A stretch of DNA of 64,000 nucleotides, taken from positions 8,476 through 72,475 of IMG/VR virus record IMGVR_UViG_3300032050_000048. One strand, written 5' to 3'. The DNA is from a virus (Duplodnaviria; Heunggongvirae; Uroviricota; Caudoviricetes). Position numbers and translations under genes: made by a program. Below, in pieces: positions 13,330 through 43,832 of this stretch (position 1 is the first letter of the stretch; each line of letters opens with the position of its first letter). The notes beneath the pieces are model-generated. The model ran no database searches. It worked only from the letters and a program-made list of their open reading frames with translations, and had not been told where the DNA came from.

Positions 13330-13333
13330 TAAT

Positions 13334-13903: not shown

Positions 13904-13905
13904 AA

Positions 13906-26451: not shown

Positions 26452-26895
26452 ATGAAAAGAAGAATAAGATTAACGGAAAGTCAATTAGTTTCTTTGATAC
26501 AACGAATTGTTGAGGAAGAAAAGTATTCAGAGGAAGATTTGACATTTCCAAATGAAGTTTACGGTAAGGATTGTATTATCCGGGCAGCAAGAAAAAAACG
26601 AACAAATATGCCTGGTCGTGAATATGGGGCTGTTGTATTATGTGATGTTAATGATACCGGCAATTTATTTGTTGTTGGTGAATTAACGGTTTTTGGAAAA
26701 ACTGAAGAAGAGGTTAACCAACGTATTTGTCAAAACATAGAACAGGTAAAAGCTGAGTACGATGAGCTATTCCAAGGAGAGGAAGAAACCCTTATGGAGT
26801 CAATTGAGAGTTCAAGATGGGACGTAAGTGATCGGCCAATTTCTTGTGATTTTTATGACCAGGAGTATGAAAATCCTTGGGAATATAGAGGATAA
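26452..26895 (+). CDS. Hypothetical protein with N-terminal leader (MKRRIRLTESQLVSLIQRIVEEEKY)
   Basis: Leader family member. Confidence 0.55.
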   Translation: MKRRIRLTESQLVSLIQRIVEEEKYSEEDLTFPNEVYGKDCIIRAARKKRTNMPGREYGAVVLCDVNDTGNLFVVGELTVFGKTEEEVNQRICQNIEQVKAEYDELFQGEEETLMESIESSRWDVSDRPISCDFYDQEYENPWEYRG

Positions 26896-27361
26896 TTAAA
26901 AAAACATTTGTCAATTAAAAAAAATAACCTATATTTGTAAAAGAAAATTAAACTTTTTGTAAAACACATATATTTATAACGAAATGAAAACAACACAGAT
27001 AAATATGAACTTTAATAACCCGTGTCAGAGCTGGGTCAAGTCGTATATTACGCTTCATAAATTTCCGTGTCTTTCATTTAATAGTACAATGTAACGTATC
27101 ATCAAATATAAAAGTGAAAGACCCGGATCCAAAAGACCCGGGTTTTTTGTTTTAAATTGGTCTCTTAGTTTAACTGGAAAAATACGACTCTTGTAAAGTT
27201 GAGTTGTCGGGTCAGTTCCGACAGGGACCTCAAAAAAGAAAATGTTCTTTGACATATCGGCCTTAAAAGGAGAGGTAATCACAGCGGCCTGTGATCCCGT
27301 CTTGAAAACGGTGAGTACCGAAAGGTATGGGGGTCGGCACCTCATCTCTCCTCTTTTATAA

Positions 27362-27435
27362 TGTCCTGTAGACGAATTGGCAGAGTCACCTCACTTTGAA
27401 CGAGGAGTATGGAGGTTCAACCCCTTCCGGGACAA
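27362..27435 (+). tRNA. tRNA-Gln (anticodon TTG)
   Basis: Cloverleaf read by hand. Acceptor tgtcctg/cgggaca (one G-U). Anticodon loop ctTTGaa. T arm ggagg-ttcaacc-ccttc. Confidence 0.65.
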
Positions 27436-27448
27436 CAATAATAAACAT

Positions 27449-27522
27449 AGGGTAGTTGGCTAATTGGCTAAGCCGCCTCGTTTGGGACGAGGAAGATGCA
27501 GGTTCAAGTCCTGTCTACCCTA
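27449..27522 (+). tRNA. tRNA-Pro (TGG)
   Basis: Acceptor agggtag/ctaccct. D stem ggct/agcc. Anticodon stem cctcg/cgagg, loop ttTGGga. T arm gcagg-ttcaagt-cctgt. Confidence 0.8.
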
Positions 27523-27539
27523 CTAAAAAACTATAAGTT

Positions 27540-27728
27540 ATGATAACAAACGAAGAATGTGAAAAAATTTCTATCAAAGGTAAGTTGAGTGGTTTAAATA
27601 ATTACTATATTAGCCTTGTTAAAATTAGTAAGGACCCATCATATCGTGGGGATTTAAGTGAAGAACTTAAAAGAGTGGAAACAGAAATAAAAATAAACAA
27701 TCAAAAACTAATGTCTTATGAAAAGTGA
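27540..27728 (+). CDS. Small hypothetical protein located between tRNA genes
   Basis: 62-aa ORF. Confidence 0.3.
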   Translation: MITNEECEKISIKGKLSGLNNYYISLVKISKDPSYRGDLSEELKRVETEIKINNQKLMSYEK

Positions 27729-27745
27729 CAAGTATGACAAACGAA

Positions 27746-27818
27746 ACCCCTCGTAGCTTAATCGGGAAAGCACCATACTTTTAATATGGGGAGAATCGGA
27801 TCGTAACCGGTCGGGGGG
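27746..27818 (+). tRNA. tRNA-Lys (TTT)
   Basis: Acceptor cccctcg/cgggggg (U-G). Anticodon stem ccata/tatgg, loop ctTTTaa. Unusual T loop atcgtaa. Confidence 0.7.
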
Positions 27819-27828
27819 ACAAAAAACA

Positions 27829-27902
27829 CACACTCTTAGCTCAGTTGGTAGTAGCGGTTGTTTTACATACAACAGGTCATAGGTTCAAGTCCTATAGGGT
27901 GT
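27829..27902 (+). tRNA. tRNA-Val (TAC)
   Basis: Acceptor acactct/agggtgt. Anticodon stem gttgt/acaac, loop ttTACat. T arm atagg-ttcaagt-cctat. Confidence 0.75.
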
Positions 27903-28036
27903 ACAATAGGTTGATTAGGGAAGTACATAACGTTAACGTGTCAGTAGTTCGTAGTTATGTGGGAGTTTTAACTGTCATAGTAAAGCTAATCGTAAAATCA
28001 GATGTCCACAGAACCATCTTCTGATTTCCTAAACTT

Positions 28037-28117
28037 GGGAGAGTTGAGCAATTGGTTGGCTCAGCAGACTGTAAATCTGTCGCGAAAGCCTTGGGGGTTC
28101 AAGTCCCTCCTCTCCCA
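28037..28117 (+). tRNA. tRNA-Tyr (GTA), bacterial type II with long variable arm
   Basis: Acceptor gggagag/ctctccc. D arm gagc-aattggttg-gctc. Anticodon loop ctGTAaa. 13-nt variable arm. Confidence 0.8.
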
Positions 28118-28126
28118 CAACAAAAT

Positions 28127-28199
28127 GGACAAGTAGCTCAATTGGTAGAGCAATCGGCTGTTAACCGATAGGTTGTAGGATCGTACCCTTCCTTGTCCG
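28127..28199 (+). tRNA. tRNA-Asn (GTT)
   Basis: Acceptor ggacaag/cttgtcc. D arm gctc-aattggta-gagc. Anticodon stem atcgg/ccgat, loop ctGTTaa. Confidence 0.8.
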
Positions 28200-28205
28200 C
28201 AATAA

Positions 28206-28278
28206 GTTCACGTAGCTCAATTGGTAGAGTGCCGATCTGATATGTCGGAGGTAATGGGATCGTAACCCGTCGTGAACA
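28206..28278 (+). tRNA. tRNA-Ile (GAT)
   Basis: Acceptor gttcacg/cgtgaac. Anticodon stem ccgat/gtcgg, loop ctGATat. T arm atggg-atcgtaa-cccgt. Confidence 0.75.
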
Positions 28279-28435
28279 CAAAAAGAGGAATAACTTGCGT
28301 AGGTGCCTCAAGGAACTGCAGTCCTACTACGCTCTATGGAAAGTAATCCCTGAAGGCGACGGGGCATGCCTGCTAAGCATTGCGATCGGTGAGAATCCGA
28401 TTGTGGATCGTTACCACTGCTTTCCTCAACATATG

Positions 28436-28508
28436 GTGTATGTAGCTCAATCGGTAGAGCGTTGGTTTGTGGAACCAAAGGTAATGGGATCGTAACCCAT
28501 CATACACA
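28436..28508 (+). tRNA. tRNA-His (GTG)
   Basis: Acceptor gtgtatg/catacac, with an extra G immediately 5' that could be the G-1. Anticodon stem ttggt/accaa, loop ttGTGga. Confidence 0.8.
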
Positions 28509-28703
28509 CAAATAGTTCACAACGGACAAGGCTTAGGCAAGTGAGTTGAGAATGAGTCGTAGGAGATATTACCAAAATGATTAAGTTCAATAAAGGAATC
28601 GTTTGGACTACAAAAAGTTTGATACAAGAGATTGGTGGGTGGCGAGTGGTTGACCAGAACTATTTAAATATCCGATGTCGGTCCCGAGCTAGGTCGGGCA
28701 TTT

Positions 28704-28774
28704 GCGTGGTACAGACAAGGTGTCGGGTAGGTCTCCAAAACCTCACTGGGTGGGTTCAATTCCTACACCACGCG
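28704..28774 (+). tRNA. tRNA-Trp-like (CCA) with degenerate D arm (possible pseudo-tRNA)
   Basis: Acceptor gcgtggt/accacgc, G73. Anticodon arm aggt-ctCCAaa-acct as in E. coli tRNA-Trp. T arm gtggg-ttcaatt-cctac. The D region does not fold canonically. Confidence 0.4.
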
Positions 28775-28820
28775 CTAAAAATAATTTTGGTGGTTAAAAA
28801 ACTTTTTGTATCTTTGAGAT

Positions 28821-29318
28821 ATGAAAAACAGACTACCATACGAAGCAACAGGAAAGGCAATCAAAGGGTATAGTGACTCTAAAATTGCAAAAGGTGAAAC
28901 AAACGATTGTGTTGTAAGAGCATTTGCGTCCTCATTTGAGGTTTCATATGACTATGCACACAAGTATGTCGCTGAAGAGTTTAATAGACAACCAAGAAGA
29001 GGGACATTTGGGACTCCATTAAAATTTGTTAAAATGTCCGATAACAGAGTTATGATAAACGGAAAAAAAGTTCATATTGTTGGTGAAAGAAAGAACGACT
29101 ATATGTTAAGATCTTTGGATTACCCCGTTAAGGTTAAAGGTGAAGTGGTTACAAGAAAAATGACTGTTGGTACCTTTGTTAAGAAAAATCCAAAGGGAAC
29201 TTTTTTTGTACTTGTTAAAGGTCACGCTTTTACAATTAAAGATGGTGTTGTTGTTGGAAACTTTGAGGATTCTCAAAAATTGAAAAGACCGATGCGTTGT
29301 GCATTTGAAATTAAATAA
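28821..29318 (+). CDS. Hypothetical protein
   Basis: 165-aa ORF inside the tRNA island. Confidence 0.5.
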   Translation: MKNRLPYEATGKAIKGYSDSKIAKGETNDCVVRAFASSFEVSYDYAHKYVAEEFNRQPRRGTFGTPLKFVKMSDNRVMINGKKVHIVGERKNDYMLRSLDYPVKVKGEVVTRKMTVGTFVKKNPKGTFFVLVKGHAFTIKDGVVVGNFEDSQKLKRPMRCAFEIK

Positions 29319-29320
29319 AA

Positions 29321-29396
29321 GGAACTATGGTGTAAGTGTGGTGTGTCACGTTGGACTGAAAATCCAAAGGTTGGGGTTCAACTCCCTATGGTTCCA
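29321..29396 (+). tRNA. tRNA-Phe (GAA) with an over-long D region
   Basis: Acceptor ggaacta/tggttcc. Anticodon stem ttgga/tccaa, loop ctGAAaa. T arm tgggg-ttcaact-cccta. The D region is 23 nt, GT-rich. Confidence 0.6.
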
Positions 29397-29419
29397 CAAA
29401 CAAATAAATTAAGGAAATT

Positions 29420-29875
29420 ATGAACAGAGTATTCAGAAAAGTAACCGGAGAATCTGTTCCTGACATTGTAAAACATACTGTTGATATATTAAAGGAATGT
29501 CCCTGGGTTGAGGTACACATTGGTACTGACTCTCAGAATCATAGAAGAAGTACTATATATGTTACAGCAATTGCTTATAGATTTGGGAATAGGGGGGTTC
29601 ATTATATCTATCACAAACAAAAGACAAAAAAGATTAAAGATAAATGGACCAGATTATGGAATGAGGCCGATTATTCAATTGAGGTTGCAGAGTGGTTAAC
29701 CACAAAAGTGAATGTAAAGGTGGAAATAGATTTAGATTACAACAGCGACTTAAAACACTTCAGCTCAAAATTAGTCCAACCGGCTGTTGGTTGGGCGACT
29801 TCACTGGGGTACAAGACAAACATTAAACCCCACAACCAAATTGCAACAAGGGCGGCAGACCACCACTGCCGCTAA
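29420..29875 (+). CDS. Hypothetical protein
   Basis: 151-aa ORF. Confidence 0.5.
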   Translation: MNRVFRKVTGESVPDIVKHTVDILKECPWVEVHIGTDSQNHRRSTIYVTAIAYRFGNRGVHYIYHKQKTKKIKDKWTRLWNEADYSIEVAEWLTTKVNVKVEIDLDYNSDLKHFSSKLVQPAVGWATSLGYKTNIKPHNQIATRAADHHCR

Positions 29876-29879
29876 TTAT

Positions 29880-29952
29880 GAGAGGTTGTCCGAGCGGCGT
29901 TAGGTCTGTGGTTGCAACCCACAGTACGGGGGTTCAAGTCCCTCACCTCTCT
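29880..29952 (+). tRNA. tRNA-Cys (GCA) with Ser-like D arm
   Basis: Acceptor gagaggt/acctctc. Anticodon stem tgtgg/ccaca, loop ttGCAac. T arm ggggg-ttcaagt-ccctc. Confidence 0.55.
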
Positions 29953-29961
29953 CAACAAAAT

Positions 29962-30035
29962 GCCCCTATGGCGGAATAGGTATACGCGTCAGATTTAGGA
30001 TCTGAATTTTGCAGGTTCAAGTCCTGCTAGGGGTA
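29962..30035 (+). tRNA. Type-I (short variable arm) tRNA with anticodon TAG (Leu codon CUA/CUG); identity uncertain
   Basis: Acceptor gccccta/taggggt, A73. D arm gcg-gaataggtata-cgc. Perfect anticodon stem tcaga/tctga with loop ttTAGga. 5-nt variable loop. T arm gcagg-ttcaagt-cctgc. Confidence 0.6.
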
Positions 30036-30403
30036 CAAAACTTTAAAAAAATAAACGATTATGAAAACGTATGACCAACATAAGATGAAAAGAACTCAGA
30101 TCAGGGAAGACCAGGTAAAAGCCGGATTCTTTGACGGTAGATTTGTTTCCCGGGTTGAGGAGTCAAAAAATACTTACACACGAAAGATTAAACATAAAAA
30201 ACAATTTTTTGTTTAATATTTACACTTTTTAAAAGTATTATATATTTATAACAAAAATAATAAAACTGCAAATGAAAAATTTACATATCATATCTTTGAG
30301 AGGGTTAGCAGAAGCTGAGGATTCTATCTATGTGAAGATGGTGTGATAAATTAATACATAAAATATTAGAAACCCATCTTCAAAAAAGATGGGTTTTTTG
30401 TTC

Positions 30404-30443
30404 TTTGACATATTGGAAATATAAAAAATTAAATATACCTTTG
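30404..30443 (+). promoter_or_regulatory. Promoter region: GTTCTTTGA motif and Bacteroidetes-type -7 element TAccTTTG, 5 nt upstream of ATG 30448
   Basis: TAccTTTG at 30436-30443 and TTTG/TTGG upstream; preceded by a terminator hairpin cccatcttcaaaaaagatggg at 30371-30399. Confidence 0.45.
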
Positions 30444-30447
30444 TTGT

Positions 30448-30741
30448 ATGGTAAAATTTAGTGATATAAAGTTTAAACCCCATAGCATGGGTGTTGGTCT
30501 TCAGGGTACTATTTTCTTTCCGGGAGGATATGGAATTTCTTGTGTTAGATTTAAATCTCCTTTTGGTGATAGATATATGTCTTATACAAGTAACGAAGAT
30601 GAGTGGGAAGTTGCAATCCTAAAAGGTGATGAAAACAACTGGGAACTTTGTTATGATACAATTTTAACAAATGATGTTTTGGGATACCAAACAAAAGAAG
30701 ATATTGAAAAAATTATGAGATATCTTATAAGATTACATTAA
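30448..30741 (+). CDS. Hypothetical protein
   Basis: 97-aa ORF. Confidence 0.45.
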   Translation: MVKFSDIKFKPHSMGVGLQGTIFFPGGYGISCVRFKSPFGDRYMSYTSNEDEWEVAILKGDENNWELCYDTILTNDVLGYQTKEDIEKIMRYLIRLH

Positions 30742-30745
30742 AAAG

Positions 30746-30777
30746 ATTTGGTAGATTAAAAAATTTGACATATCTTT
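30746..30777 (+). promoter_or_regulatory. Bacteroidetes-type promoter (TTTG, 20-nt spacer, TAtcTTTG)
   Basis: TTTG at 30746-30749, TAtcTTTG at 30770-30777. Followed by a gtaagacaaa leader and a GTTCTTTGA motif at 30844-30852. Confidence 0.5.
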
Positions 30778-30779
30778 GT

Positions 30780-31250
30780 AAGACAAACGATGGGGGTAGG
30801 AAGTTTAGAAATTGGTATCCTACCCCCAGATAAAGGGAAAAAAGTTCTTTGAAAACATTGTGATTTATTACACTAAAGCGAGGGGGAAAACTTTAGGTAG
30901 TATGTGTTGAACTAGCTTGCTCCGACTAGCACGGTCTAATCCGCCGTGAAGCATTTAATAATGGAGTAATGATGCTGATACATATAAATCACAACTTTTT
31001 AAAATATTGTGGTGGTAAGAAAAGGTGAACTCGTTAAGTTCATAGACCTGTTGACAAAAGATGGTGAAACGAGTGTGGTTGTCAACTACTGTATCACAGA
31101 TATAGCAGGCGGGAGGTAGAGGATCTCACCGGTCTCATAAGCCGGTTTAACTTGGTGCGATTCCAAGGCGTTGCTACAACAAAAAGGGTGGATAGGTGGG
31201 AGGGCCTTTCCTAAAAGACGGCACGCTAGGCCCGTGTTCACCCTTAAAAT
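30780..31250 (+). ncRNA. Candidate structured noncoding transcript A (about 470 nt between the promoter and tRNA-Asp; class unknown)
   Basis: No credible ORF. GC-enriched relative to the surrounding DNA. Hairpins such as gggggtagga...tcctaccccc. Ends at tRNA-Asp. Confidence 0.35.
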
Positions 31251-31322
31251 GGTCCATTGGTGTAGTGGCTAACATACATCCCTGTCACGGATGTGCTCCG
31301 GGTTCAATTCCCGGATGGACCG
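31251..31322 (+). tRNA. tRNA-Asp (GTC)
   Basis: Acceptor ggtccat/atggacc. Anticodon stem catcc/ggatg, loop ctGTCac. T arm ccggg-ttcaatt-cccgg. Confidence 0.8.
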
Positions 31323-31351
31323 CTAAACAATTAAAAACTAAACAAAATGAA

Positions 31352-31573
31352 ATGTTAAAGTTTAAACTGGGGTTGTGGGGTGTTGTAGGTACCACAATGA
31401 TTTACATCTACATAATGAATTTATTTTTCAGTTATGTAATCAACCGGGAGGTTGATGAAATCCTACAAATCGGTGCTAGTTTTATAGCTTTATTCTACAC
31501 CGTTTTTCAAATAAAGCTAATAGTAAAAGAAATAACAAATTTATTTAACAAAAAAGAAAAAGAAAATGATTAG
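31352..31573 (+). CDS. Small membrane protein
   Basis: The track ORF 31196..31573 overlaps tRNA-Asp, so an internal in-frame ATG at 31352 was chosen. MLKFKLGLWGVVGTTMIYIYIMNLFF is hydrophobic. Confidence 0.4.
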   Translation: MLKFKLGLWGVVGTTMIYIYIMNLFFSYVINREVDEILQIGASFIALFYTVFQIKLIVKEITNLFNKKEKEND

Positions 31574-32468
31574 TTTGATTGTAACATTAGTGTTTTTGAT
31601 TATCGCAGGGGTGATGATTGTAAAAGGTAAAATTAACGATGAGTCCTCAAGTATTCTAAAAGGAGTTGTTGTTGGTGTTGTGGGTGTATTGATTGGCGTA
31701 TTCCAACCATACTCACTTGAGAGAATTGACGCCGGTCACAAAGGTATTGTGGTTAACTTGTCCGGATCTGAAAGAGGGGTTGCTTCATATCAGTACAAAA
31801 CTGGGTGGGTTGTTTATAACACCTGGTTCACGCAAGTTCTTGAGTTCCCAACCTTTCAACAACATATTGAGTATGATGATCAGGTTGTAATTACAAAGGG
31901 TGGGTTCTCAGCAACTATTAAACCATCGTTTAACTACTCGTTGAAACCGGAAGCAATTGGTGATATGTTTGAAAACCTACGATTGGGTGTTAAAGAAATT
32001 GAACAAGGGTGGCTTAAAAACGCAATTGTTGGGGCGGTTAATGATGAAGCAAATAAATGGGAAGTTGATAGTATTTTTTCTAATCGTCAACAGTTTGAAG
32101 CGGCAATTGTTGTTGAGTGTAATAAACGATTAACAAAGTGGTTTGATGTGTCACAACTTAGAACAAACATTACACCACCGGAGGCGCTCCAGGAATCAAT
32201 TATTGCAAAAACAAAAGCTATCCAACAAGCTGAAGCCTCCGAGCAACAAGCAATTGCTGCAATTGCAGAAGGAAAACGTAAGGTGGCTGTCGCAAGAGCC
32301 GACTCGGCAGAAACAATTATCAACGCAAAAGCGGCATCACTTGCAATTGAGTTGAAACAACAAAAACTAACACCGATGTATATTGAGTATTTGAAGGCAA
32401 ATGCTTGGGATGGTAAACTTCCAACAACAATGGCAGGCAGTTCTGGAACGTTTTTGAATATTAAATAA
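31566..32468 (+). CDS. SPFH/band-7 (prohibitin/stomatin-like) family protein
   Basis: N-terminal TM helix, then GHKGIVVNLSGSERGV...; a coiled-coil AIQQAEASEQQAIAAIAEGKRKVAVARADSAE typical of the SPFH fold. Confidence 0.7.
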   Translation: MISLIVTLVFLIIAGVMIVKGKINDESSSILKGVVVGVVGVLIGVFQPYSLERIDAGHKGIVVNLSGSERGVASYQYKTGWVVYNTWFTQVLEFPTFQQHIEYDDQVVITKGGFSATIKPSFNYSLKPEAIGDMFENLRLGVKEIEQGWLKNAIVGAVNDEANKWEVDSIFSNRQQFEAAIVVECNKRLTKWFDVSQLRTNITPPEALQESIIAKTKAIQQAEASEQQAIAAIAEGKRKVAVARADSAETIINAKAASLAIELKQQKLTPMYIEYLKANAWDGKLPTTMAGSSGTFLNIK

Positions 32469-32473
32469 AAAGA

Positions 32474-32505
32474 TTTGGAGGATTGAAAAATTCTCCTTAT
32501 CTTTG
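32474..32505 (+). promoter_or_regulatory. Bacteroidetes-type promoter (TTTG, 20-nt spacer, TAtcTTTG)
   Basis: TTTG at 32474-32477, TAtcTTTG at 32498-32505. Followed by a gtaaaacaaa leader and GTTCTTTGA at 32526-32534. Confidence 0.5.
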
Positions 32506-32509
32506 TAAA

Positions 32510-32775
32510 ACAAATAAGGAAAGAAGTTCTTTGAAATAATAGATTGGTAAGATAGCAGATAGACCTACGTCAGCAGACTCTCATAGAGAATCAGAAATGA
32601 TGAGTAAAACGGAGCCCCTATCAGACTAACGTGTTGAGGAGGTACTCAAAGTTTTCCGGGAGGTTAACTGGTAATAAACGATGGTTTGGGTAGAACGGAT
32701 GTTAAAGGCGAGGTGTGGGTAGTAAGGATGGGGTAACCCACGAATAAGTAAATCTTAAGGTCTTACCATTTTTTA
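32510..32775 (+). ncRNA. Candidate noncoding RNA B (about 265 nt, promoter to terminator-like hairpin plus T-run)
   Basis: No ORF. Ends with gtaag...cttac followed by ATTTTTT around 32746-32775. Confidence 0.35.
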
Positions 32776-32928
32776 AAAATCTAAATCACGGGTGGCTCCC
32801 TTAATAGTTAAGGCTGACCTTAAGCATCTGACGCATGTCTATACAGGGGGCGAAAGTGATTTAAAATATTGTAATGAACAACGCGACCGCAGGAGTTGTA
32901 CCTTTATGGTTTTGTAATGTGGTTTTAT

Positions 32929-33003
32929 GTTCCGTTCGTCTAGCTGGTTTAGGACACTTCCCTTTCACGGAAGAGATCATGGGTTCAAATCCCATACGGA
33001 ATA
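32929..33003 (+). tRNA. tRNA-Glu (TTC)
   Basis: Acceptor gttccgt/acggaat. D arm gtc-tagctggtttag-gac. Anticodon stem cttcc/ggaag, loop ctTTCac. T arm atggg-ttcaaat-cccat. Confidence 0.8.
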
Positions 33004-33013
33004 CAAAAAATAT

Positions 33014-33087
33014 GGTCCCGTAGCTCAGCTGAATAGAGCAACGCCCTTCTAAGGCGAAGGTCACAGGTTTGAATCCTGTCGGGACTA
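33014..33087 (+). tRNA. tRNA-Arg (TCT)
   Basis: Acceptor ggtcccg/cgggact. D arm gctc-agctgaata-gagc. Anticodon loop ctTCTaa. T arm acagg-tttgaat-cctgt. Confidence 0.8.
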
Positions 33088-33233
33088 CAAAAAATTAAAA
33101 GTTATGAATTATACAATAGAAAAGAAATGTCATGCTTGGATAGGAATATGGTGGCAAGTTAAGGAAGATAAAGAGATAGTCTTTAAGAGCAAACGAAAAA
33201 AAGATTGTGTGTTCTACGTGAACAGTAAAAAAT

Positions 33234-33338
33234 AGTCAGGTGGCGGAATTGGTAGACGCACCTCAACACCCTGGGGTTGAGACATTAAATGAGGGTTAAC
33301 AATGGGTCTCTTATAGGTTCAAATCCTGTCCTGACTAC
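33234..33338 (+). tRNA. Atypical 105-nt type-II tRNA-like gene (Leu-type D arm; anticodon region expanded or unresolved)
   Basis: Acceptor agtcagg/cctgact. D arm gcggaattggtagacgc is identical to E. coli tRNA-Leu. T arm atagg-ttcaaat-cctgt. About 18 nt too long between the D and T arms; no clean 7-nt anticodon loop. Confidence 0.35.
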
Positions 33339-33601
33339 ACGTGGTAGGGTTCATCACCCCCTAGTGTGCCCCACATAATGAGAAACGGAGTGATATCCGT
33401 AGGGGAACGTACATTGTCGTATAGGGAGAACGACTGGGAAAGTAAGTTGTATTAGATACAGTGGAAACGCACATCTCAACAGAGGTGGACTGAAAGTTTG
33501 CCCGACCTGGGTTGAGGACGAAAGAAACTATTTCTAACCTACCTTTTTGGTGGGGACAACCGGAGCACCTGTAAGCTGAATAAATTAGGGTGTTAACAAA
33601 G
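33339..33601 (+). ncRNA. Candidate structured spacer RNA E between the two atypical type-II tRNA-like genes
   Basis: About 260 nt, GC-enriched, no ORF. Confidence 0.25.
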
Positions 33602-33690
33602 GCAAGTGGCGAAATCGGCAGACGCTAAGGTAGATCTAACTAAGATTGTACCGAGACAATGTAAAAGTTGTCGTATAGGTTCAAATCCTT
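33602..33690 (+). tRNA. Atypical type-II tRNA-like gene (Leu/Ser-type D arm gcgaaatcggcagacgc; anticodon unresolved)
   Basis: Acceptor aggcaag/cttgtct (G3-U70). T arm atagg-ttcaaat-ccttt. A hairpin gacaa...ttgtc in the variable region. No canonical anticodon arm found. Confidence 0.3.
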
Positions 33691-33879
33691 TCTTGTCTAC
33701 AAATACAATTAAAAGATGAATATGTTATTGTTTGTATCATTTGTTTTGTTTATACTTTTAATAGGTAGAAAAAAAAGAAAATATTAACTTCAGTACCCAT
33801 ACAGCGGTGAGACGGGCTAAGTAAGATACGATTCCTCGGGGCTGGGAGTAGAATGCTGAAGAAATATTTTCTAAAATAT

Positions 33880-33959
33880 GCTCCGATGGTGAAATTGGTA
33901 TACACGATGCGTTTAAGCCGCATTCCTACGGGGTGAGGGTTCAAATCCCTCTCGGAGTA
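33880..33959 (+). tRNA. tRNA-Leu (TAA), type II
   Basis: Acceptor gctccga/tcggagt. Anticodon stem atgcg/cgcat, loop ttTAAgc. 11-nt variable arm. T arm gaggg-ttcaaat-ccctc. Confidence 0.75.
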
Positions 33960-34062
33960 CTGTTGTGTTATTCCCTTGAGAAAGGAATTACGGTGGGATA
34001 TGGTCTTGATTTGGATTTAACCTAGTATGAATCACAACACAGAGGACTTCTCATCCTCAACC

Positions 34063-34136
34063 GGACCTTTAACTCAGTTGGTCAGAGTGCTTGACTCATA
34101 ATCAAGGAGTCGTAGGTTCAAACCCTACAAGGTCCA
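34063..34136 (+). tRNA. tRNA-Met (CAT); could instead be an fMet or Ile2 (lysidine) type
   Basis: Acceptor ggacctt/aaggtcc. D arm actc-agttggtca-gagt. Anticodon stem cttga/tcaag, loop ctCATaa. T arm gtagg-ttcaaac-cctac. Confidence 0.75.
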
Positions 34137-34151
34137 CACCGCTTAAGATGC

Positions 34152-35657: not shown

Positions 35658-35705
35658 GATTTTTAAATATTTATCATAATAAATAAACTTTAAAAAACAA
35701 AAATT

Positions 35706-35874
35706 ATGAAGTTAACAAAAGAACAAGCACTAGGTATTCTTAGACACGTATTAACGTTTGCCGGAGGTATCGTTGTTGCTAAAGGTTACGTTGATAACGC
35801 AGCAGTGGTTGAAATTATTGGTGGTGTTATGACATTAGCAGGTGCTGTTTGGTCTATAATTGACAAAAAGTAAT
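35706..35874 (+). pseudogene. Small holin-like membrane protein ORF, reading frame interrupted at a GGG run (35820-35822); frameshift or sequencing error
   Basis: Frame 1 gives MKLTKEQALGILRHVLTFAGGIVVAKGYVDNAAVVEII. Skipping one G continues as GGVMTLAGAVWSIIDKK with stop at 35872-35874. Unshifted, it ends at 35864 after a poor tail. Confidence 0.35.
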
Positions 35875-35897
35875 TTATTTGATAACATTTCTTACTT

Positions 35898-35925
35898 AAC
35901 CCCACTTAAACGGTGGGGTTTTTTA
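35898..35925 (+). terminator. Rho-independent terminator
   Basis: Hairpin aaccccac-ttaaacg-gtggggtt followed by a T-run. Confidence 0.6.
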
Positions 35926-35951
35926 TTTAATAATATATTTATATTATAATT

Positions 35952-36773
35952 ATGAAAAAAATACTTACAGAGTCTGAAGTTAAAAACATTAAAAATATGT
36001 ACTCAATTAATGAGTCATTACTTTCTGATGTTGTTGACAAAATAAAAGATTTACCGGATTTTGAAAATATCAAAAAAAAATTTAAGGAAGTTACAGGAAT
36101 TGATCTTGAATCAAAGGTCAATATTGGTGGCAAATCATCTAACACCAATTATAAAGGAAAAGTTGACTTTAGTCGTGGAGGGTTTAGTAGTGAACAAAAG
36201 GAAAATATTGAATACCTTTTATCTGAAATGGAGAAAAAGGGGATTAAGGACCCTTACACTCAAATAGGGATTTTATCTGTAATTATGAAAGAAACTAACT
36301 TCATTCAAAAAAGTGAAGTTGACTATTCAGATACCGCAAACTCAAGAATACGAAACACATTCGGTAAAAGAGTACGAAAATATTCCGATGAACAACTAAA
36401 TAAATTAAAAGCAAACCCAAAGAGATTTTTTAATGTTGTTTATGCAAATATAATTGGAAATGGTGATGTAGAAAGTGGTGATGGATATAAGTATCGTGGG
36501 AGAGGGTTTAATCAGTTAACAGGGAAGGGTAACTATAGAAAATATGGTTCACTTGCCGGTATTGATTTGGTAAGTAATCCAGATAAATTAAATGATAGAG
36601 AAGTTGCGGTAAAAGTTGCGTTACAATTTTTAACAAAAGGAAAAACAGATTTTCCTAAATTTGATAGTAAAAAAGAAGCAGCAGAATATTTTGCTGATAT
36701 AAATGCTGGTGGTGGTACAAGTACTCACAGATCAAATGCGGTTAAAGCGTCTGAAAATTTTGATATTAAATAA
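35952..36773 (+). CDS. Glycoside hydrolase family 19-like endolysin (peptidoglycan hydrolase) with leader-family N-terminus (MKKILTESEVKNIKNMY)
   Basis: YRGRGFNQLTGKGNYRKYGSLAGIDLVSNPDKL matches the GH19 catalytic core pattern (YKGRGxIQLTGxxNY). Confidence 0.65.
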   Translation: MKKILTESEVKNIKNMYSINESLLSDVVDKIKDLPDFENIKKKFKEVTGIDLESKVNIGGKSSNTNYKGKVDFSRGGFSSEQKENIEYLLSEMEKKGIKDPYTQIGILSVIMKETNFIQKSEVDYSDTANSRIRNTFGKRVRKYSDEQLNKLKANPKRFFNVVYANIIGNGDVESGDGYKYRGRGFNQLTGKGNYRKYGSLAGIDLVSNPDKLNDREVAVKVALQFLTKGKTDFPKFDSKKEAAEYFADINAGGGTSTHRSNAVKASENFDIK

Positions 36774-36776
36774 AGT

Positions 36777-37388
36777 ATGGAGAATTTATCTGGAATAATT
36801 ATTGCTTTTATAACTGGAGTCTTGGGACCGATTTCAATCCTACTTATTAAAAACTATTTTGATAAGAAAAAAAAGAAACCGGATATGGTTAGAGAAACAC
36901 TTAAAGTTTCTGAACTTGTAAATCAAAAAATAGAACATATTAAAGAAGAGTTTAATGCTGATCGTGTTTGGGTTACTCAATTTCATAATGGAGGCAACTT
37001 TTACCCAACTGGAAAATCAATGGCAAAATTCTCAATAATATATGAAGCTGTAAACCCTGGAATATCCTCAGTGCAGTCAAACTTTCATAATATACCAGTT
37101 AATCTATTTTCAAAATCAATCAATGAATTACTTGTAAATGACGTTATTGAAATTACAGATTATAAAGATGAAACAATTGCAACTTTCGGTCTTAAGTATA
37201 TTGCCGAAGACACTGGCTGTAAATCTGGTTATTTATTTGCAATTAAAACAATTGATGAAAAATTTATTGGTACATTAGGTCTTGATTACACAAAAAAGAA
37301 AACAAAACTTAATATTGAATCAATAAATCATCTTCAGGTTCACGCATCATCTTTGGGTGGTGTTTTAATGAACCATTTAAATCAATAA
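36777..37388 (+). CDS. N-terminally membrane-anchored protein in the lysis cassette
   Basis: TM helix LSGIIIAFITGVLGPISILLI followed by a KKKKKP stop-transfer. Confidence 0.5.
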   Translation: MENLSGIIIAFITGVLGPISILLIKNYFDKKKKKPDMVRETLKVSELVNQKIEHIKEEFNADRVWVTQFHNGGNFYPTGKSMAKFSIIYEAVNPGISSVQSNFHNIPVNLFSKSINELLVNDVIEITDYKDETIATFGLKYIAEDTGCKSGYLFAIKTIDEKFIGTLGLDYTKKKTKLNIESINHLQVHASSLGGVLMNHLNQ

Positions 37389-37418
37389 TTTTTACAATCT
37401 TAGTATATTTATTGTAGT

Positions 37419-38102
37419 ATGAATTTAGTCTATCCATTAGAAAAAAAAGGAGTTAAAACATCTGGATTTGGGAATAGAAAGCACCCGGTTAAAGGTAGCA
37501 CTATTCACCATAATGGTATTGATATTGGTATTCCAGACGGAACAAGTGTTATATCAGTCGCTAACGGTGAGGTTGTTAGATCAGATATGAAAGACAAAAA
37601 TGGGTATGGAAATTTTATTATTGTAAAACATAATGTTGATGGTGAAACCTTTTTTTCTTGTTATGCACATTTAACAAAAAGACTTGTTGATGTTGGTGAT
37701 AAGGTTAAAAAAGGAGAGAAAATTGCCGAATCCGGTGGAGGTCAGGGTATTTCTGGTGGTGGGGGTATGTCAACAGGACCACATTTACATTTTGAGATAA
37801 GAAAATCAGTTACTGGTGGTTGGGTAAATCCAGAACCATACATTAATGGAGCACCAATCACAAAAGGTTTTGGTGGTAAGGAAAATAAAAAAGATTTGAG
37901 TGATGATGGTTTAGCGGCAACACTAATGAGTATCGCTAATGATTATGTCCTTAAACCAGTTGGGGATTTGTTGGACAAATCAGAAACAATCAAGTTATTC
38001 AAAAAAATGGCTGCCGATGTTGAGAAGGAATACGAAGCATCCGATAAGGGAATGTGGGAACAAAATGAGAGATTAAAAAAAATTATTAAAAAAATTCTCT
38101 AA
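37419..38102 (+). CDS. M23 family peptidase (lysostaphin-like endopeptidase)
   Basis: HNGIDIGIPDGTSV...GNFIIVKHNVDGETFFSCYAHL...GPHLHFEIRK carries the HxxxD and HxH M23 signatures. Confidence 0.8.
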   Translation: MNLVYPLEKKGVKTSGFGNRKHPVKGSTIHHNGIDIGIPDGTSVISVANGEVVRSDMKDKNGYGNFIIVKHNVDGETFFSCYAHLTKRLVDVGDKVKKGEKIAESGGGQGISGGGGMSTGPHLHFEIRKSVTGGWVNPEPYINGAPITKGFGGKENKKDLSDDGLAATLMSIANDYVLKPVGDLLDKSETIKLFKKMAADVEKEYEASDKGMWEQNERLKKIIKKIL

Positions 38103-38404: not shown

Positions 38405-39372
38405 AAACAAATTCGGAAACGTCCGAAATCGTTCTTTGAAAAATTAGAATATCCATTCAGAATGTTTGATGATGAAATCCTTGCGGTTGATTCTGAGTAA
38501 CAAACTGATAAAGATATTTGGCCGTATATAGTCAATAAATAAACTGGGAAACCAGGATAAAGTGGGTCAGTAGTGTAACTGATCTGCGGTTTGGGTAACC
38601 GAACTTAAGTATACAAGCGGGATACCGTTTAACCTTTAGTACCGAGGGCAACGCTGTAGGGAAAGTGGTTAGATGATTGGGCGATGTGGGTCGTCCGGTT
38701 GAGGTGGGAACACCAATAGGAATAACTCGTAGGGATATTGCAAAAAATAAGATTATCCAATTTTATTATTGCGTGTCCCAATATCAGAGGATACTTAAAA
38801 CCGAAAGGTATGATAACAAACAGGTGGTGCTGACATTATCCTTGACCCTTGCCTACCAAGGCATAAGTCACGAAGTAATCTTAAAATATTGAGATGGGGA
38901 CATTTCAGAGAGTAGTTGAGTATCGGCTCGTTCAAAAGATGAGCTGGCTCTGGTGGCGGACCACTACTTTCATAATCCACGACACAAAAACCTAAGAAAA
39001 AATTATGAAATTAATTTAATCAGAAAGGAAAAGTGTCCGTCAGGTTTGGATGAAAGGTGACTACATAGTAATGAGCCGTTCATTGCACACAAGGATCCCA
39101 AGTCTAAGTGTAATTATCCGAAAAACCTTTAGTCCCGCAAGGACGAACTGGGGAGGCATCCTCGGAAAGAGTCAAGTAAGGTGAGAGTAGTCCAAATCTC
39201 AAGGAGTGGTTCCCCTAAGTGACCGTCACTGAGAAATACTTCTCAAAAGGAAGTGGATAGGAGTAGAATAAATAATGACTCTAAAGGTTCTCAATAAAAC
39301 GTGTAATCTCAACGTTCTTTTTAGGTTTAATCTTATAAGACAAAAAAAATTAGTAGGGACAGGAAACTGATC
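38405..39372 (+). ncRNA. Candidate large (about 0.95 kb) structured noncoding RNA, promoter to terminator (GOLLD/ROOL-like?)
   Basis: No ORF over 71 aa, and the reading frames are broken. GC-enriched. Ends with the aggga...tccct hairpin plus TTTTTTT at 39345-39372. Sits beside the tmRNA and the tRNA island. Confidence 0.35.
39345..39372 (+). terminator. Rho-independent terminator of the large candidate ncRNA
   Basis: Hairpin aggga-caggaaactga-tccct followed by TTTTTTT. Confidence 0.55.
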
Positions 39373-39467: not shown

Positions 39468-39858
39468 TGGTGGAGATGCGGGGCTCCGACTCCCCGGTCC
39501 AGCTCGTCTTGTTTAAAAGACCACTACATGCTTAGGTTGGTATTTTCTAATACCCCAAAATAGTTGATTTGTTCTTTTCCATCGTAAATCAACAACCAAT
39601 GGTTTCTAATCCGGATTTAGAGAGCCGACCAGGTTGCTCTATAAAACTACGACTTCTGTTGCTAGGCTATATGTCTGCCGGCCCCCGGTTTTTGTTGCGA
39701 TTACGCTACAGCAACCTCAGAAGTGCGGATTAACCCAACAGCTTCCATTTTGTTTAGCACATTGCCATTTAAAAAGTGAATCAGTTTTTAACGAGATTAA
39801 TTCAGTCCCGACATGCTCCTTTTATTCAACCAACGCCTGTCAAATCCAATACATCCCC
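39468..39858 (-). ncRNA. ssrA: tmRNA (transfer-messenger RNA, SsrA), one-piece, CCA-encoded
   Basis: Minus-strand 5' end GGGGATGTATTGGATTTGACAGG matches the E. coli tmRNA 5' end GGGGCUGAUUCUGGAUUCGACGGG. The 3' end CTAAGCATGTAGT...GGACCGGGGAGTCGGAGCCCCGCATCTCCACCA matches the conserved 3' end. Acceptor ggggatg/catctcc has G3-U70. Internal tag frame ...TSEVAVA-TAA. Confidence 0.85.
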
Positions 39859-40987: not shown

Positions 40988-41773
40988 ATGGAAAGAAATT
41001 TTGAATTACTAAAAAAGGTCCTTTCGGTTCCGACTAAGACCTACCAGGAAGATTTAATGATTGAGTTTATTGTTGACTGGCTTGAGTCAAAGAATATTCC
41101 ATTTTATCTGGACCAATACTATAATGTATATGCTACAAAACAAACAGATACCAATATTGAGTATTTTCCTTGTGTTGTAGCCCACACAGACACTGTTCAC
41201 AATATTGATACAATAAATGTCGTTGAGGAGATGCTTCCAAACGCACAGAAAGAGATAAAACTAGCACTTAAAGCTTATAACGATAAAGGAGAACCAACCG
41301 GTATTGGTGGTGATGATAAATGTGGCGTATTTGCCTGTCTTGAACTTCTTGAGGAAATGCCAAACCTAAAAGCTGCGTTCTTTGTTGCTGAAGAAACTGG
41401 ATGTAAAGGGTCATTTAACTCAGATTCGGCTTTCTTTGAAAACGTGGGTTATGTTATTCAGTTTGATGCACCAGAAAATAATATGATTTCTGAGTTTCTT
41501 ATGAGTGCGCCAATGTTTACCCGGGATAGTGATTTCTTTAAGGTTGGTGGAAGGTTGATTACAGAACATTTCCCAAAGGACACAAAATACCATAGACATC
41601 CATATACGGATATTTATCCTTTAAATCAAAGATATAAGATATCTTGTTTTAATATCTCAATTGGTTATTACAACTACCACACAAGAAATGAGTACGTTGT
41701 TATTGATGATACATACAACGGAATAAAGGTAGGTAAGTTAATGATTGAGGAACTTGGTTATACCAAACATTAA
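40988..41773 (+). CDS. MH-clan zinc peptidase (M20/M28/M42-like aminopeptidase/hydrolase)
   Basis: VAHTDTVH, GGDDKCGVFACLELLEE and AEETGCKGS give the His/Asp metal ligands, the GxDDKxG motif and the Glu-Glu pair. Confidence 0.6.
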   Translation: MERNFELLKKVLSVPTKTYQEDLMIEFIVDWLESKNIPFYLDQYYNVYATKQTDTNIEYFPCVVAHTDTVHNIDTINVVEEMLPNAQKEIKLALKAYNDKGEPTGIGGDDKCGVFACLELLEEMPNLKAAFFVAEETGCKGSFNSDSAFFENVGYVIQFDAPENNMISEFLMSAPMFTRDSDFFKVGGRLITEHFPKDTKYHRHPYTDIYPLNQRYKISCFNISIGYYNYHTRNEYVVIDDTYNGIKVGKLMIEELGYTKH

Positions 41774-41776
41774 AAA

Positions 41777-41799
41777 AGGAGGGTTTTTAACCCTCCTTT
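41777..41799. terminator. Bidirectional terminator between convergent peptidase and Clp ATPase genes
   Basis: Hairpin aaggagggtttttaaccctcctt. Confidence 0.6.
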
Positions 41800-43832
41800 T
41801 TCTTTCTACCCCTTTTAGGTTTATTCTCAATAAGAACATCAATCTTAATTTCCTTATCTACAACTGTCAATTTATAATCAACATCTTCTAGAACTTCATT
41901 TAGTAATATTTTCTCAGAGATAAGGTCTTCAATTTTATCCTGGATTGCCCTTTTAATTGGTCTTGCACCAAATTGTTCATCAAACCCAACCTCAGATATC
42001 AATTCAACAACTGACTCATCGTATGTAATTTTATATTTCATTGACTCAATTCTGTTAACTAACTTCTCAATTTCAATTTTAACAATCCGGTCAACGTGCT
42101 CTTTTTTAAGCGAGTTAAAGACAATAACGTCATCAATTCTATTTAGGAATTCTGGAGCGAAGAACTTACTTAATTCTTTTTTGAGGATATCTCTTTTTTC
42201 TTCTTCTCTTACTGCTTCACTACTATTTGATTTAAACCCAACTCCAGTTCCAAAATCCTGTAATTTTCTAACACCAATATTTGATGTCATAATAATTAAA
42301 CAATTTTTGAAGTTAATTTTTCTTCCAAGTCCGTCGGTCATATGCCCGTCATCAAGCATTTGAAGAAGTGTTGAGAAGATATCTTTATTTGCCTTTTCAA
42401 TCTCATCAAATAAGATAACAGAGTATGGTTTATTTTTAACCTGTTCTGTAAGCTGTCCACCCTCTTCGTGACCAACATATCCTGGAGGAGAACCGATAAG
42501 CCTTGATATAGTATGTTTTTCCTGATATTCAGACATATCAACACGAATCAAACTATCTTCACTACCAAAAATTTCTTTTGCTAGTTTCTTTGCAAGATAT
42601 GTTTTACCAACACCGGTTGACCCAAGGAAGATAAATGAACCAATTGGTCTATTTGGGTCCTTAATTCCAATTCTATTTCTTCTAATGGATTTTGATATTT
42701 TTGTTACCGCTTCAGCCTGACCAATTACATAGCTATTTAGTGCGTTCTCTAAATTAACAAGAGAGTTTTTCTCGTCAACATTAATTTTGCTTACCGGGAT
42801 TTTAGTCATTTTAGAAACAACCTCATAAATTAAATCTTCCGGAATTACTCTTTTACTATTTCTAAGTTCTTCCTCAAATTTTAATCTTTCGGCATCAAGT
42901 GATGACATTACTGATTTTTCCCGGTCCCTTAACTCAGCAGCCATTTCGTATTTCTGTTTTTTTATAACGTCAGACTTCTCCTTTTTAATTTCAAGAAGTT
43001 CTTGTTTTAGATTTTCAATACTTTCAGGAAGTTTAATATCAATTTGCATTCTTGACCCAACCTCATCAATAATATCAAAAGCTTTATCCGGAAACTCACG
43101 ATCTGTAATATATCTATCGGCAAGTTCTACACATAAAAGAAGTGATTCGTCTGAATATGTTACCTTGTGATGTTCTTCATACTTTTCTTTACTATTTTTT
43201 AAAATTTGAAAAGTTTCAGCCTTTGTTGATGGTTCTACAATTACTTTCTGGAATCTTCTCTCAAGAGCTCCATCCTTCTCAAAATGCTTTCTATATTCAT
43301 CAAGGGTTGTAGCACCAATACATTGGATTTCACCCCTAGAAAGGGCCGGTTTAAAGATGTTTGAGGCATCAAGTGAACCAGAACTATTACCAGCACCAAC
43401 CATTGTATGAATCTCATCAATAAAAAGAATAATGTTTGGATTACTTTGAAGTTCCTCAATTATTACTTTCATTCTTTCCTCAAATTGTCCACGATATTTT
43501 GTACCGGCAACAATTGAATTCATCTCAAGGGAAACAATTCTTTTCTCTGAAAGATTTTTAGGACATTCACCACTATGAATCATCATTGCCAACCCTTCTA
43601 CAATTGCTGTTTTACCACAACCTGGTTCACCGATAATAATAGGGTTGTTTTTCTTTCTTCTAGATAAAATTTGTGCAATTCTAATAATTTCATCTTCTCT
43701 ACCTATTACAGGGTCTAATTTACCTTCTTGAGCTAACTTATTTAAGTCTTTACTAAAGTTGTCTAGAACCGGAGTTCCACTATCACTTTTTTTCTTGTTC
43801 TTGTCGTTGTCATCAATGAATTCTATTGCCAT
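41787..43832 (-). CDS. ClpC/ClpA-like class I AAA+ unfoldase (two ATPase domains, UVR-type middle domain, VGF ClpP-docking loop; no Clp_N domain)
   Basis: Walker A motifs [15 protein letters not shown] and [15 protein letters not shown]. Middle domain [21 protein letters not shown] tripeptide loop. N-terminus begins about 50 residues before the first Walker A. Confidence 0.85.

Follow-up and report, generated by a model that had tools for sequence, protein, structure and literature searches.

What a phage does with a peptidoglycan-cutting enzyme whose gene lies beside a holin gene, and whose N-terminus recurs on many other proteins, is the question raised by the stretch of DNA analysed here. 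The stretch (IMG/VR record IMGVR_UViG_3300032050_000048, class Caudoviricetes) is 64,000 nucleotides (nt) long and is called the window throughout. At 35706-38102 it carries genes for a small membrane protein, a GH19 enzyme, a membrane-anchored protein of 203 amino acids (aa), which we call TM203, and an M23 endopeptidase. An earlier note on this DNA had described the region as a lysis cassette with a frameshifted holin-like gene, and had suggested that the N-terminal peptide of the GH19 enzyme (the leader) could make it an injected hydrolase of the virion rather than a classical endolysin. We consider it probable that a large uncultured phage with a T4-like head has in this region an intact lysis module, with the GH19 protein as its modular endolysin. 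The elements of the module are as follows.

35667-35679, plus strand: promoter-like motif ATATTTATCATAA, 27 nt 5' of the holin start, from octamer over-representation.
35706-35873, plus strand: predicted holin, 55 aa, hydrophobic in two segments at residues 8-25 and 32-53 or so, from Pfam PF23987 and Kyte-Doolittle hydropathy.
35898-35930, plus strand: intrinsic-terminator-like hairpin (stem of 9 base pairs, 5 of them GC, and a 5-nt loop) with a T-run, from a terminator scan.
35935-35942, plus strand: promoter-like octamer ATATTTAT, 10 nt 5' of the GH19 start, from the octamer scan.
35952-36017, plus strand: GH19 leader, residues 1-22, MKKILTESEVKNIKNMYSINES, 32 bits with the leader profile.
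36018-36182, plus strand: second N-terminal part of the GH19 protein and variable linker, residues 23-77, from the alignment and an AlphaFold2 (AF2) model with a predicted local distance difference test score (pLDDT) of 48-75.
36183-36773, plus strand: GH19 catalytic domain, residues 78-273, with the invariant Glu114 and Glu122, from profiles, AF2 and Foldseek.
36777-37388, plus strand: TM203, 203 aa, one N-terminal transmembrane (TM) helix at about residues 5-25, followed by KKKKK and an alpha/beta domain, from sequence and a low-confidence model.
37405-37412, plus strand: promoter-like octamer ATATTTAT, 7 nt 5' of the M23 start, from the octamer scan.
37419-38102, plus strand: M23 metallo-endopeptidase, catalytic residues about 25-140, with a helical C-terminal tail of about 85 aa and no leader, from PF01551.

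The evidence that carries this reading is comparative. Centred on TM203, the comparison covered 83 related loci, 75 of which were informative in that they had enough upstream sequence. The holin and TM203 form the conserved core across the 83 loci. A Phage_holin_10 gene lies at most 1.5 kb upstream of TM203 in 51 of the 75: within 120 nt in 30, with one inserted open reading frame (ORF) of 100 aa or more between them in 13, and at a shorter spacing in 8. A clear leader is present at the N-terminus of 12 of these 13 inserted ORFs, and the thirteenth has a degenerate version of it. The bodies behind the leader differ from phage to phage. Besides GH19, the slot holds a tagged GH24+LysM protein in L010 and seven similar loci and a tagged protein of 281 aa with an EGGY motif in L008. 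Tagged SLT lysins (L015, L016, L040 and L060; the Pfam score of the L015 protein is 25.6 bits against a cutoff of 21.3) lie directly upstream of TM203, with no holin within 1.5 kb. A guess that the L008 protein belongs to GH108 was not confirmed in Pfam, PHROGs, NCBIfam or PDB. The exchange of the enzyme is seen most directly between the window and L010, in which the holin (71% identity), TM203 (84%) and M23 (69%) are retained and the lysin is replaced.

Many relatives carry, upstream of the holin, a canonical PG_binding_1-GH19 endolysin that has no leader (for example L033). This canonical enzyme is present at none of the 14 loci with a tagged lysin versus 25 of the 69 others (Fisher p = 0.004-0.008, an approximate value, as the loci include near-duplicate phages). 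A conserved core with an exchanged enzyme is, in gene content and order, the pattern of a lysis module whose enzyme is interchangeable, and it is mainly because of this pattern, made up of synteny, swapping and mutual exclusion, that we read the GH19 protein as most likely the endolysin of this phage, a predicted muramidase. The description of the region as a lysis cassette is thus strengthened, by the holin-TM203 synteny in 51 of 75 loci and by the muralytic genes that recur in the slot. With at least three catalytic classes exchanged behind the tag, the module is an example of endolysin modularity in which a short tag at the N-terminus, and not a cell-wall-binding domain, is what stays constant.

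A further slot family of 217-234 aa (L088 at 3343-3999, L045, L075, L043 and L011) occurs in phages that keep the canonical endolysin. Its members combine the leader module with a C-terminal domain that has an AWRQAEG..NPFNTT motif and four conserved Cys, and searches of Pfam and NCBIfam gave no match to a known family.

The identity of the GH19 enzyme is well defined. The ORF at 35952-36773 does begin with MKKILTESEV, as had been noted, and sequence, profiles and fold agree on what follows. It matches the phrog_181 endolysin family at 1.9e-30, although its match to the Pfam GH19 model is marginal (25.7 bits against a cutoff of 25.5), and its closest solved relatives are phage endolysins (PWe1 in PDB, 6.3e-16). 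Glu114 and Glu122 are invariant among 42 sequences, and Glu114 aligns with the Glu of the 'vEsg' segment of PWe1. The AF2 model has a pLDDT above 90 for residues 71-273, whereas residues 1-70 form a flexible extension of low confidence. The top Foldseek matches of the model are KTN6 gp46 (8p8e), SPN1S (4ok7) and PWe1 (9ms6), each with a probability of 1.00. With these endolysins the window protein shares its catalytic fold, the pair of Glu residues and a YRGRGxxQLTG motif; it differs from them in the flexible N-terminal extension of about 77 residues, where they have either no such part or a PG_binding_1 domain.

Over its first 68 residues the GH19 protein shares 49% identity (E = 4e-15) with the N-terminus of a slot protein of 218 aa whose body is unrelated, and an IMG/VR scan with the 60-residue N-terminal module found it at 8 loci, mostly duplicates. 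The leader is kept across the whole GH19 family, with E7 and I13 nearly invariant, while the linker is hypervariable in the family alignment. Within the family two versions of the leader, ITExEKxxIKxLYxLNE and RLTExDLxxLIKxIV, interchange on orthologous enzymes. The module of about 60 residues stays in the slot while the catalytic bodies are swapped behind it, and its first 22 residues are one version of a generic leader of 23 residues. No 17-residue window of the GH19 protein reaches a Kyte-Doolittle value of 1.6. The leader cannot be a signal-arrest-release (SAR) anchor, because it is charged and amphipathic and has no hydrophobic stretch, and a Sec signal is ruled out by the same lack of a hydrophobic core. 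The likeness to SAR endolysin/pinholin systems is therefore limited to an N-terminal endolysin extension that possibly times the action of the enzyme.

In some homologues the GH19 core is fused to another hydrolase. P0017-P0040, P0069 and related proteins have an N-terminal M23 domain (390-414 aa in total) or an Amidase_2 domain (465-473 aa). These fused proteins keep a leader-like helix (..LINADLIKRLIEKLKEKNF..) between the domains and also have a short N-terminal FxKFIKTLNES or FKQFINES peptide.

The M23 endopeptidase that the earlier note placed at 37419-38102 was upheld by its profile match and its HxxxD and HxH motifs. The protein matches PF01551 at 1.2e-25 (89.9 bits against a cutoff of 28.7) and the NCBIfam MepM model at 1.5e-25, and its zinc-ligand motifs HNGID (H31-D35) and HLH (H122/H124) are intact.

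TM203 starts 3 nt past the GH19 stop and has a single N-terminal TM segment, in line with the TM anchor noted earlier. It is the most constant element of the module: we found 4853 homologues, the best 120 clusters of which are at least 80% identical, and among 406 copies in IMG/VR the best 80 (L011-L090) are 76-86% identical. The protein is 76-95% identical among phages whose holin, M23 enzyme and lysin have diverged or been replaced. Because 185,579 bacterial and archaeal species genomes yielded just one distant copy (49%, in a metagenome-assembled genome), TM203 is, judged from its distribution, a gene of lytic phages. Profile searches found no relatives in Pfam, NCBIfam or PDB, and AlphaFold supplied with 24 close homologues gave a poor model (pLDDT 46) of mixed alpha/beta secondary structure. 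TM203 gave a tentative impression of a GAF-like pattern. The basic KKKKK cluster after the TM helix suggests that the C-terminal domain (residues 27-203) is cytoplasmic. An i-spanin role was considered and found to be unsupported: no small ORF listed inside 36777-37388 or following it has a lipobox Cys, which leaves TM203 with no o-spanin partner there, and its domain probably faces the cytoplasm. As the constant, hyper-conserved neighbour of the holin, TM203 is a candidate for a new lysis or sorting component.

In the mechanism that we propose, the 55-aa holin would collect in the inner membrane and permeabilise it at triggering, and the resulting lesion would give two cytoplasmic enzymes, both devoid of a signal sequence, access to the wall. 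The GH19 muramidase would then cleave the glycan strands and the M23 endopeptidase the peptide bridges. TM203 may be the holin's conserved partner and regulate or organise its action. Such an arrangement resembles lambda S-R type cassettes in that a small holin with several TM segments stands beside a signal-less cytoplasmic muralytic enzyme, and in that the enzyme slot is subject to non-orthologous replacement (here GH19, GH24+LysM and SLT). The window differs from these cassettes in the separate promoter-like motifs and the terminator between holin and lysin, in TM203 as a constant neighbour, in the second hydrolase M23, in that no spanin genes were found, and in the leader that its lysin has in common with unrelated proteins.

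Several points weigh against this reading, in addition to the near-duplicate loci mentioned above. Two distant relatives, L005 and L007, carry a leader-GH19 gene alone, with none of holin, TM203 and M23 within 10 kb. A spanin-like outer-membrane component was not found, and a Foldseek search with the pLDDT-46 model of TM203 gave no meaningful fold match. Separated by a terminator and by a promoter-like motif 5' of GH19, the holin and GH19 genes are not one operon. Finally, the leader is borne by many proteins for which nothing points to a part in lysis. It resembles the capsid-targeting sequence (CTS) of T4, so the GH19 enzyme is possibly packaged.

The last of these points requires a closer look at the leader. 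A leader profile was built with GH19 homologues of other phages as its sole source, from their N-terminal residues. Run against the window, it matched six ORFs at 11-32 bits, each at its first residues, whereas the maximum among shuffled translations was 9.4 bits; the leader is hence real and beyond chance. When weaker but positionally exact cases are counted, at least 12 ORFs of the window bear it at residue 1. In addition to the GH19 gene, which starts at 35952, they are the following (the two on the minus strand start at 7480 and 12909).

592-1254, plus strand: leader ORF, MSYKRILIEEKEKQEILSKYY, 220 aa, 4 Cys, N-terminal leader match.
2117-2407, plus strand: leader ORF, MKKQIRLTESELINLIEKIVKENE, 96 aa, N-terminal leader match.
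2413-2634, plus strand: leader ORF, MKNYIITEGQLKYILSEN, 73 aa, N-terminal leader match.
3274-3816, plus strand: leader ORF, MGKKIIISESQLERLAKLIAE, 180 aa, 15.3 bits with the independent profile.
3823-4380, plus strand: leader ORF, MKVILSESQINRTQKMII, 185 aa, N-terminal leader match.
4419-5138, plus strand: leader ORF, MKRIITLTETDLTRIVRRVIEEQ, 239 aa, 4 Cys, 12.4 bits; the same as P0265 in the global search.
6944-7480, minus strand: leader ORF, MKRIRLSENDLVKVIKKVLSENE, 178 aa, N-terminal leader match.
9412-10332, plus strand: leader ORF, MSKRFVITESEKNHIKNLYG, 306 aa, 4 Cys, 32.2 bits with the GH19-family leader profile.
10377-11165, plus strand: leader ORF, MNKRILISEEEKRRILDMHK, 262 aa, 12 Cys, 15.4 bits.
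12292-12909, minus strand: leader ORF, MKIILTESQYKNLILENLG, 205 aa, 11.4 bits.
26452-26895, plus strand: leader ORF, MKRRIRLTESQLVSLIQRIVEEE, 147 aa, 4 Cys, N-terminal leader match.

Codons differ among these leaders, and therefore the conservation is at the protein level and a DNA repeat behind the shared N-termini is ruled out. A profile of the 12 N-termini was then searched against 1.84 billion cluster representatives (E <= 0.001) and found 555 protein families (50% clusters), which bears out the supposition that the N-terminal peptide of the lysin is common to other phage proteins and places it among the most widespread short linear motifs on phage proteins. In about 140 of the best 150 families the leader is at residue 1. 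Its consensus, MKKIIRLTESDLxRIVKRVIxEQ, has 23 residues, and conservation stops at position 23. E9 is present in 100% and E22 in 95%, with I, V or L at P3. There were 31 extra copies at internal or C-terminal positions. Among the matches P0259-P0408, a Met often comes just before an internal leader, as would be seen after a fusion of genes; the leader also occurs at true C-termini, and some proteins are tagged at both ends. We found no leader in Pfam or NCBIfam models and no leader-like strings in open-access literature text.

The proteins behind the leader are almost devoid of Pfam domains, the exceptions being LysM, PG_binding_1, GNAT, a periplasmic-binding fold and annexin-like repeats (a C-terminal motif of P0385 is OmpA-like by eye only). 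Among leader proteins with at least two Cys, the number of Cys is even in 49 of 57 (binomial p = 3e-8), compared to 97 of 153 neighbouring non-leader ORFs (Fisher p = 0.001). This bias suggests that the leader proteins are disulfide-bonded and act outside the reducing cytoplasm. Three of the leader ORFs in the window, 592-1254, 4419-5138 and 10377-11165, also have a C-terminal motif in common (..SPCTPTLG, ..SPCMQTLG and ..MLCTETLG), which may be a second conserved terminal signal; the ORFs at 592 and 4419 are alike over the preceding 40 residues or so as well.

Could the leader, then, be an undescribed general sorting signal of the abundant uncultured aquatic phages with T4-like heads? We put this at somewhat short of an even chance. 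If it is such a signal, hundreds of families of mostly small, disulfide-type and often wall-directed proteins, among them the endolysin of whatever catalytic class, would leave the cytoplasm by means of it. Their destination would most likely be the prohead, with the leader removed by a gp21-type protease after its terminal Glu; the alternative destination is the holin-TM203 pair. The two possibilities differ in how well they agree with the data and are taken in turn.

In the first, the leader is a T4-type CTS that loads the GH19 enzyme and the other leader proteins into the prohead core. The gp21-type protease would trim them after Glu at LTE|S, INE|S or both, both of which are present in the GH19 leader (Glu7 and Glu21), and the enzyme would be ejected at infection and open the wall. 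Lysis at the end of the cycle would be performed by the M23 enzyme or by an unpackaged fraction of GH19, which makes this explanation compatible with an endolysin role. We regard it as a tentative alternative, one that has a fair amount in its favour and that we nevertheless do not expect to be right.

The T4 CTS, MKTYQEFIAE, is removed by gp21, whose cleavage consensus is L/I-x-E. The leader resembles it in being a short conserved N-terminal peptide on unrelated fast-evolving proteins (IPI-III and Alt in T4) and in ending at a Glu in an [L/I]-x-E context. It has no similarity to MKTYQEFIAE itself, is longer (23 versus about 10 residues), is found on hundreds of families that include muralytic and wall-binding proteins, and also occurs at internal and C-terminal positions. 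In T4 the internal proteins have only the N-terminal CTS in common, which loads the scaffolding core and is then removed by gp21 (PMC3012670, PMC5694885, PMC9958956); its length is 10-20 residues (PMC5694885, PMC9958956). That the prohead proteases of T4, phiKZ and SPN3US all cleave after Glu (PMC5694885, PMC9958956) is a precedent for cleavage at the conserved Glu just past which the conservation of the leader ends. The cargo, too, matches the T-even internal proteins (PMC3012670): it is hyperdiverse, consists mostly of small ORFans and has its own promoter-like motifs, and its even number of Cys fits proteins that act outside the cytoplasm.

The phage group has the head proteins that such a mechanism requires. 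On a contig of the same phage, a terminase and Portal_T4 are encoded 6.6 kb beyond the end of the window. In a relative with a 90% identical portal, the genes run in the order portal, p238, p155, gp21-type prohead protease (PDB 5jbl, 3.9e-13), acidic scaffold-like protein, gp23-type capsid protein (9e-27) and p434. The head modules lie at 14823-20726 in L100 and at 10001-19718 in L104, where the gp21-type protease homologue is at 13301-14038, and the scaffold-like protein is extremely acidic.

Motifs of the same kind occur in the head proteins. The leader ends in [IV][IVL]xE, and its RLTE|S and RVIxE|Q motifs resemble T4-type maturation sites. In the capsid protein, whose first 60 residues hardly vary within the group, ..FLINE|ATSEG is conserved at the N-terminus; p434 begins with M..KILNE|ATSD or ..KVIKE|ATSQ, p154 with MRNLDRLIKKVIRE|T and p238 with MKFGILKSKIEKxLTE|SY, and one p434 contains a complete internal leader.

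Three observations count against a purely packaging role. The leader also has 31 internal and C-terminal copies, the GH19 gene adjoins a holin and not the structural module and substitutes for the canonical endolysin, and the recognised cargo is wall-binding (LysM, PG_binding_1), unlike the capsid-internal proteins of T4, which aim at cytoplasmic targets. The suggestion that the leader marks an injected hydrolase instead of a classical endolysin is not established: the T4-like head and the likeness of the motifs speak for it, and the holin neighbourhood, the lack of any export signal and the mutual exclusion with the canonical enzyme speak for an endolysin. Packaging of the leader-tagged GH19 protein is plausible from these motifs. 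A dual role is possible, in which part of the GH19 protein is packaged for entry and the rest stays in the cytoplasm for lysis; PRD1 P15 and phi6 P5 are precedents for enzymes that serve both purposes. Our literature search found no paper that connects a CTS with an endolysin. Virion-associated hydrolases such as phi29 gp13 likewise pair a glycosidase with an M23 domain, as do the relatives with M23-GH19 fusions of 407-413 aa; in the window, the two enzymes are encoded by separate genes beside a holin and not in a tail module. If the leader is indeed a CTS, the injected proteome of a major group of uncultured phages would become readable from sequence, a ready-made packaging tag would be available for engineering, and the CTS principle of T4 would reach far past the T-even phages.

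In the second possibility, which we think unlikely, the leader is a docking or export signal that is read by the holin-TM203 pair or by the cytoplasmic domain of TM203. Wall-directed phage proteins, endolysins included, would be concentrated there or passed to the periplasm along a phage-encoded sorting route linked to the holin. The conservation of TM203 (76-95%), far above that of its neighbours, is as expected for a hub that recognises one peptide on many clients, and the ORFs inserted between holin and TM203 bear the leader in 12 of 13 cases, the last in degenerate form. The cargo is, moreover, extracytoplasmic in kind (GH19, GH24+LysM, SLT, LysM, PG_binding_1 and a periplasmic-binding-protein fold), to which the even Cys numbers are well suited. 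All of this is circumstantial, however, and such a signal has no known precedent. TM203 has no assignable fold, it occurs in L009 with neither a lysin nor a holin adjacent to it, and L007 has several leader proteins and no TM203 within 20 kb. Furthermore, passage through holin lesions normally needs no targeting signal. The endolysin of a holin-dependent module is our preferred reading of the GH19 gene.

The product of the ORF at 35706-35873, MKLTKEQALGILRHVLTFAGGIVVAKGYVDNAAVVEIIGGVMTLAGAVWSIIDKK, matches positions 1-50 of the 52 in Pfam PF23987 (Phage_holin_10, the family of cyanophage Pam3 gp28) with E = 4.9e-17 and 62.1 bits against a cutoff of 27. Two Kyte-Doolittle windows reach at least 1.6, corresponding to the two hydrophobic segments listed above, and the C-terminus is charged (DKK). 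Independent assemblies from ENA and JGI contain the identical 55-aa protein on 22 contigs, and four more 55-aa variants are at least 90% identical. The window holin is thus a typical member of its family in length, hydrophobic segments and full-length match; it differs in being paired with TM203, and hole formation is predicted from the family only. There is practically no chance that the gene is frameshifted, whether by sequencing error, phase variation or a programmed shift at a GGG run, since bases 35820-35822 are GGT, the codons ATT ATT GGT GGT GTT ATG read ..IIGGVM.. in one frame that continues uninterrupted to the stop and yields exactly the peptide that was thought to need a shift, and independent assemblies agree on it. 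The frameshift is an artefact of manual reading, and the possibility that the short ORF has no homologues is likewise excluded by the family match and the 22 contigs. Because of the single frame, the full-length match and the independent contigs, the holin can be taken as ordinary and intact, and re-inspection of the reads is unnecessary.

The transcriptional signals of the module were examined as well. The GH19 gene begins 79 nt 3' of the holin, and the hairpin and T-run between them, noted earlier as a terminator, were recovered at 35898-35930 with a minimum free energy of -14.3 kcal/mol (z = -3.3; none of 200 shuffles was equally stable). The octamer ATATTTAT occurs 41 times in the window versus 16.5 expected, a 2.5-fold over-representation, and about 25 of the copies are 6-40 nt 5' of co-oriented ORF starts (examples are at 577, 2094, 4399, 10354, 26439, 35667, 35935, 37405, 38120, 39912 and 47137). 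The holin, GH19 and M23 genes each have their own copy and TM203 has none. The extended form ATATTTATCATAA is found on either side of the cassette, at 35667 and 38120. From its position the octamer probably serves as a promoter of the phage, and the transcripts would then have very short 5' untranslated regions.

A second holin-like gene with two TM segments had also been proposed at 6595-6831. The ORF, on the minus strand, encodes 78 aa with two hydrophobic stretches and a basic C-terminus, and has its own ATATTTAT at 6852. The hydrophobic stretches are thus as described, whereas Pfam, PHROGs and NCBIfam, holin families included, gave no family match that would make it a holin.

Downstream of the module, on the same strand, lies a GOLLD RNA (Rfam RF02032, full model, 312-328 bits; 38908-39315, plus strand in the window). 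GOLLD is found 1.2-2.9 kb downstream of TM203 in the window and likewise in 9 of 16 scanned relatives (L008, L010, L015, L017, L018, L021, L026, L045 and L088). A phage tmRNA at 39468-39858 (minus strand, 86.7 bits) adjoins it, as it does in relatives, of which L010 also has an SmpB gene. The conserved order is tRNA array, holin-(lysin)-TM203, GOLLD and tmRNA; in the window the array comprises 17 tRNA genes at 27159-34137, upstream of the lysis module. GOLLD is reported to become more abundant when phages lyse their hosts (PMC12286853). Its synteny with the lysis module may be a lead to its function, a question that dates from 2009.

The window is AT-rich (31.5% GC), and the majority of its large ORFs have no match to known phage families. 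A search of GenBank/INPHARED found no cultured phage with the cassette region or the leader, and no match among these phages to the 686-aa ORF at 20194-22251. The phage group is abundant in freshwater and marine metagenomes. Its hosts are probably Bacteroidota, because relatives of the window phage encode type IX secretion sorting domains and a tail-fibre-like ORF of the window has a short, weak match to the tail fibre of a Flavobacterium phage. Six tandem paralogous ORFs of about 240 aa each at 54468-60579 have Laminin_G_3/concanavalin-like domains (one confirmed inside the window) and are probably part of a tail-fibre or receptor-binding module. Closer to the lysis module, the window encodes an M20/M28-like peptidase at 40988-41773 and a ClpB/ClpA-like AAA+ protein at 41787-43832 on the minus strand (phrog_4871, 7e-239).

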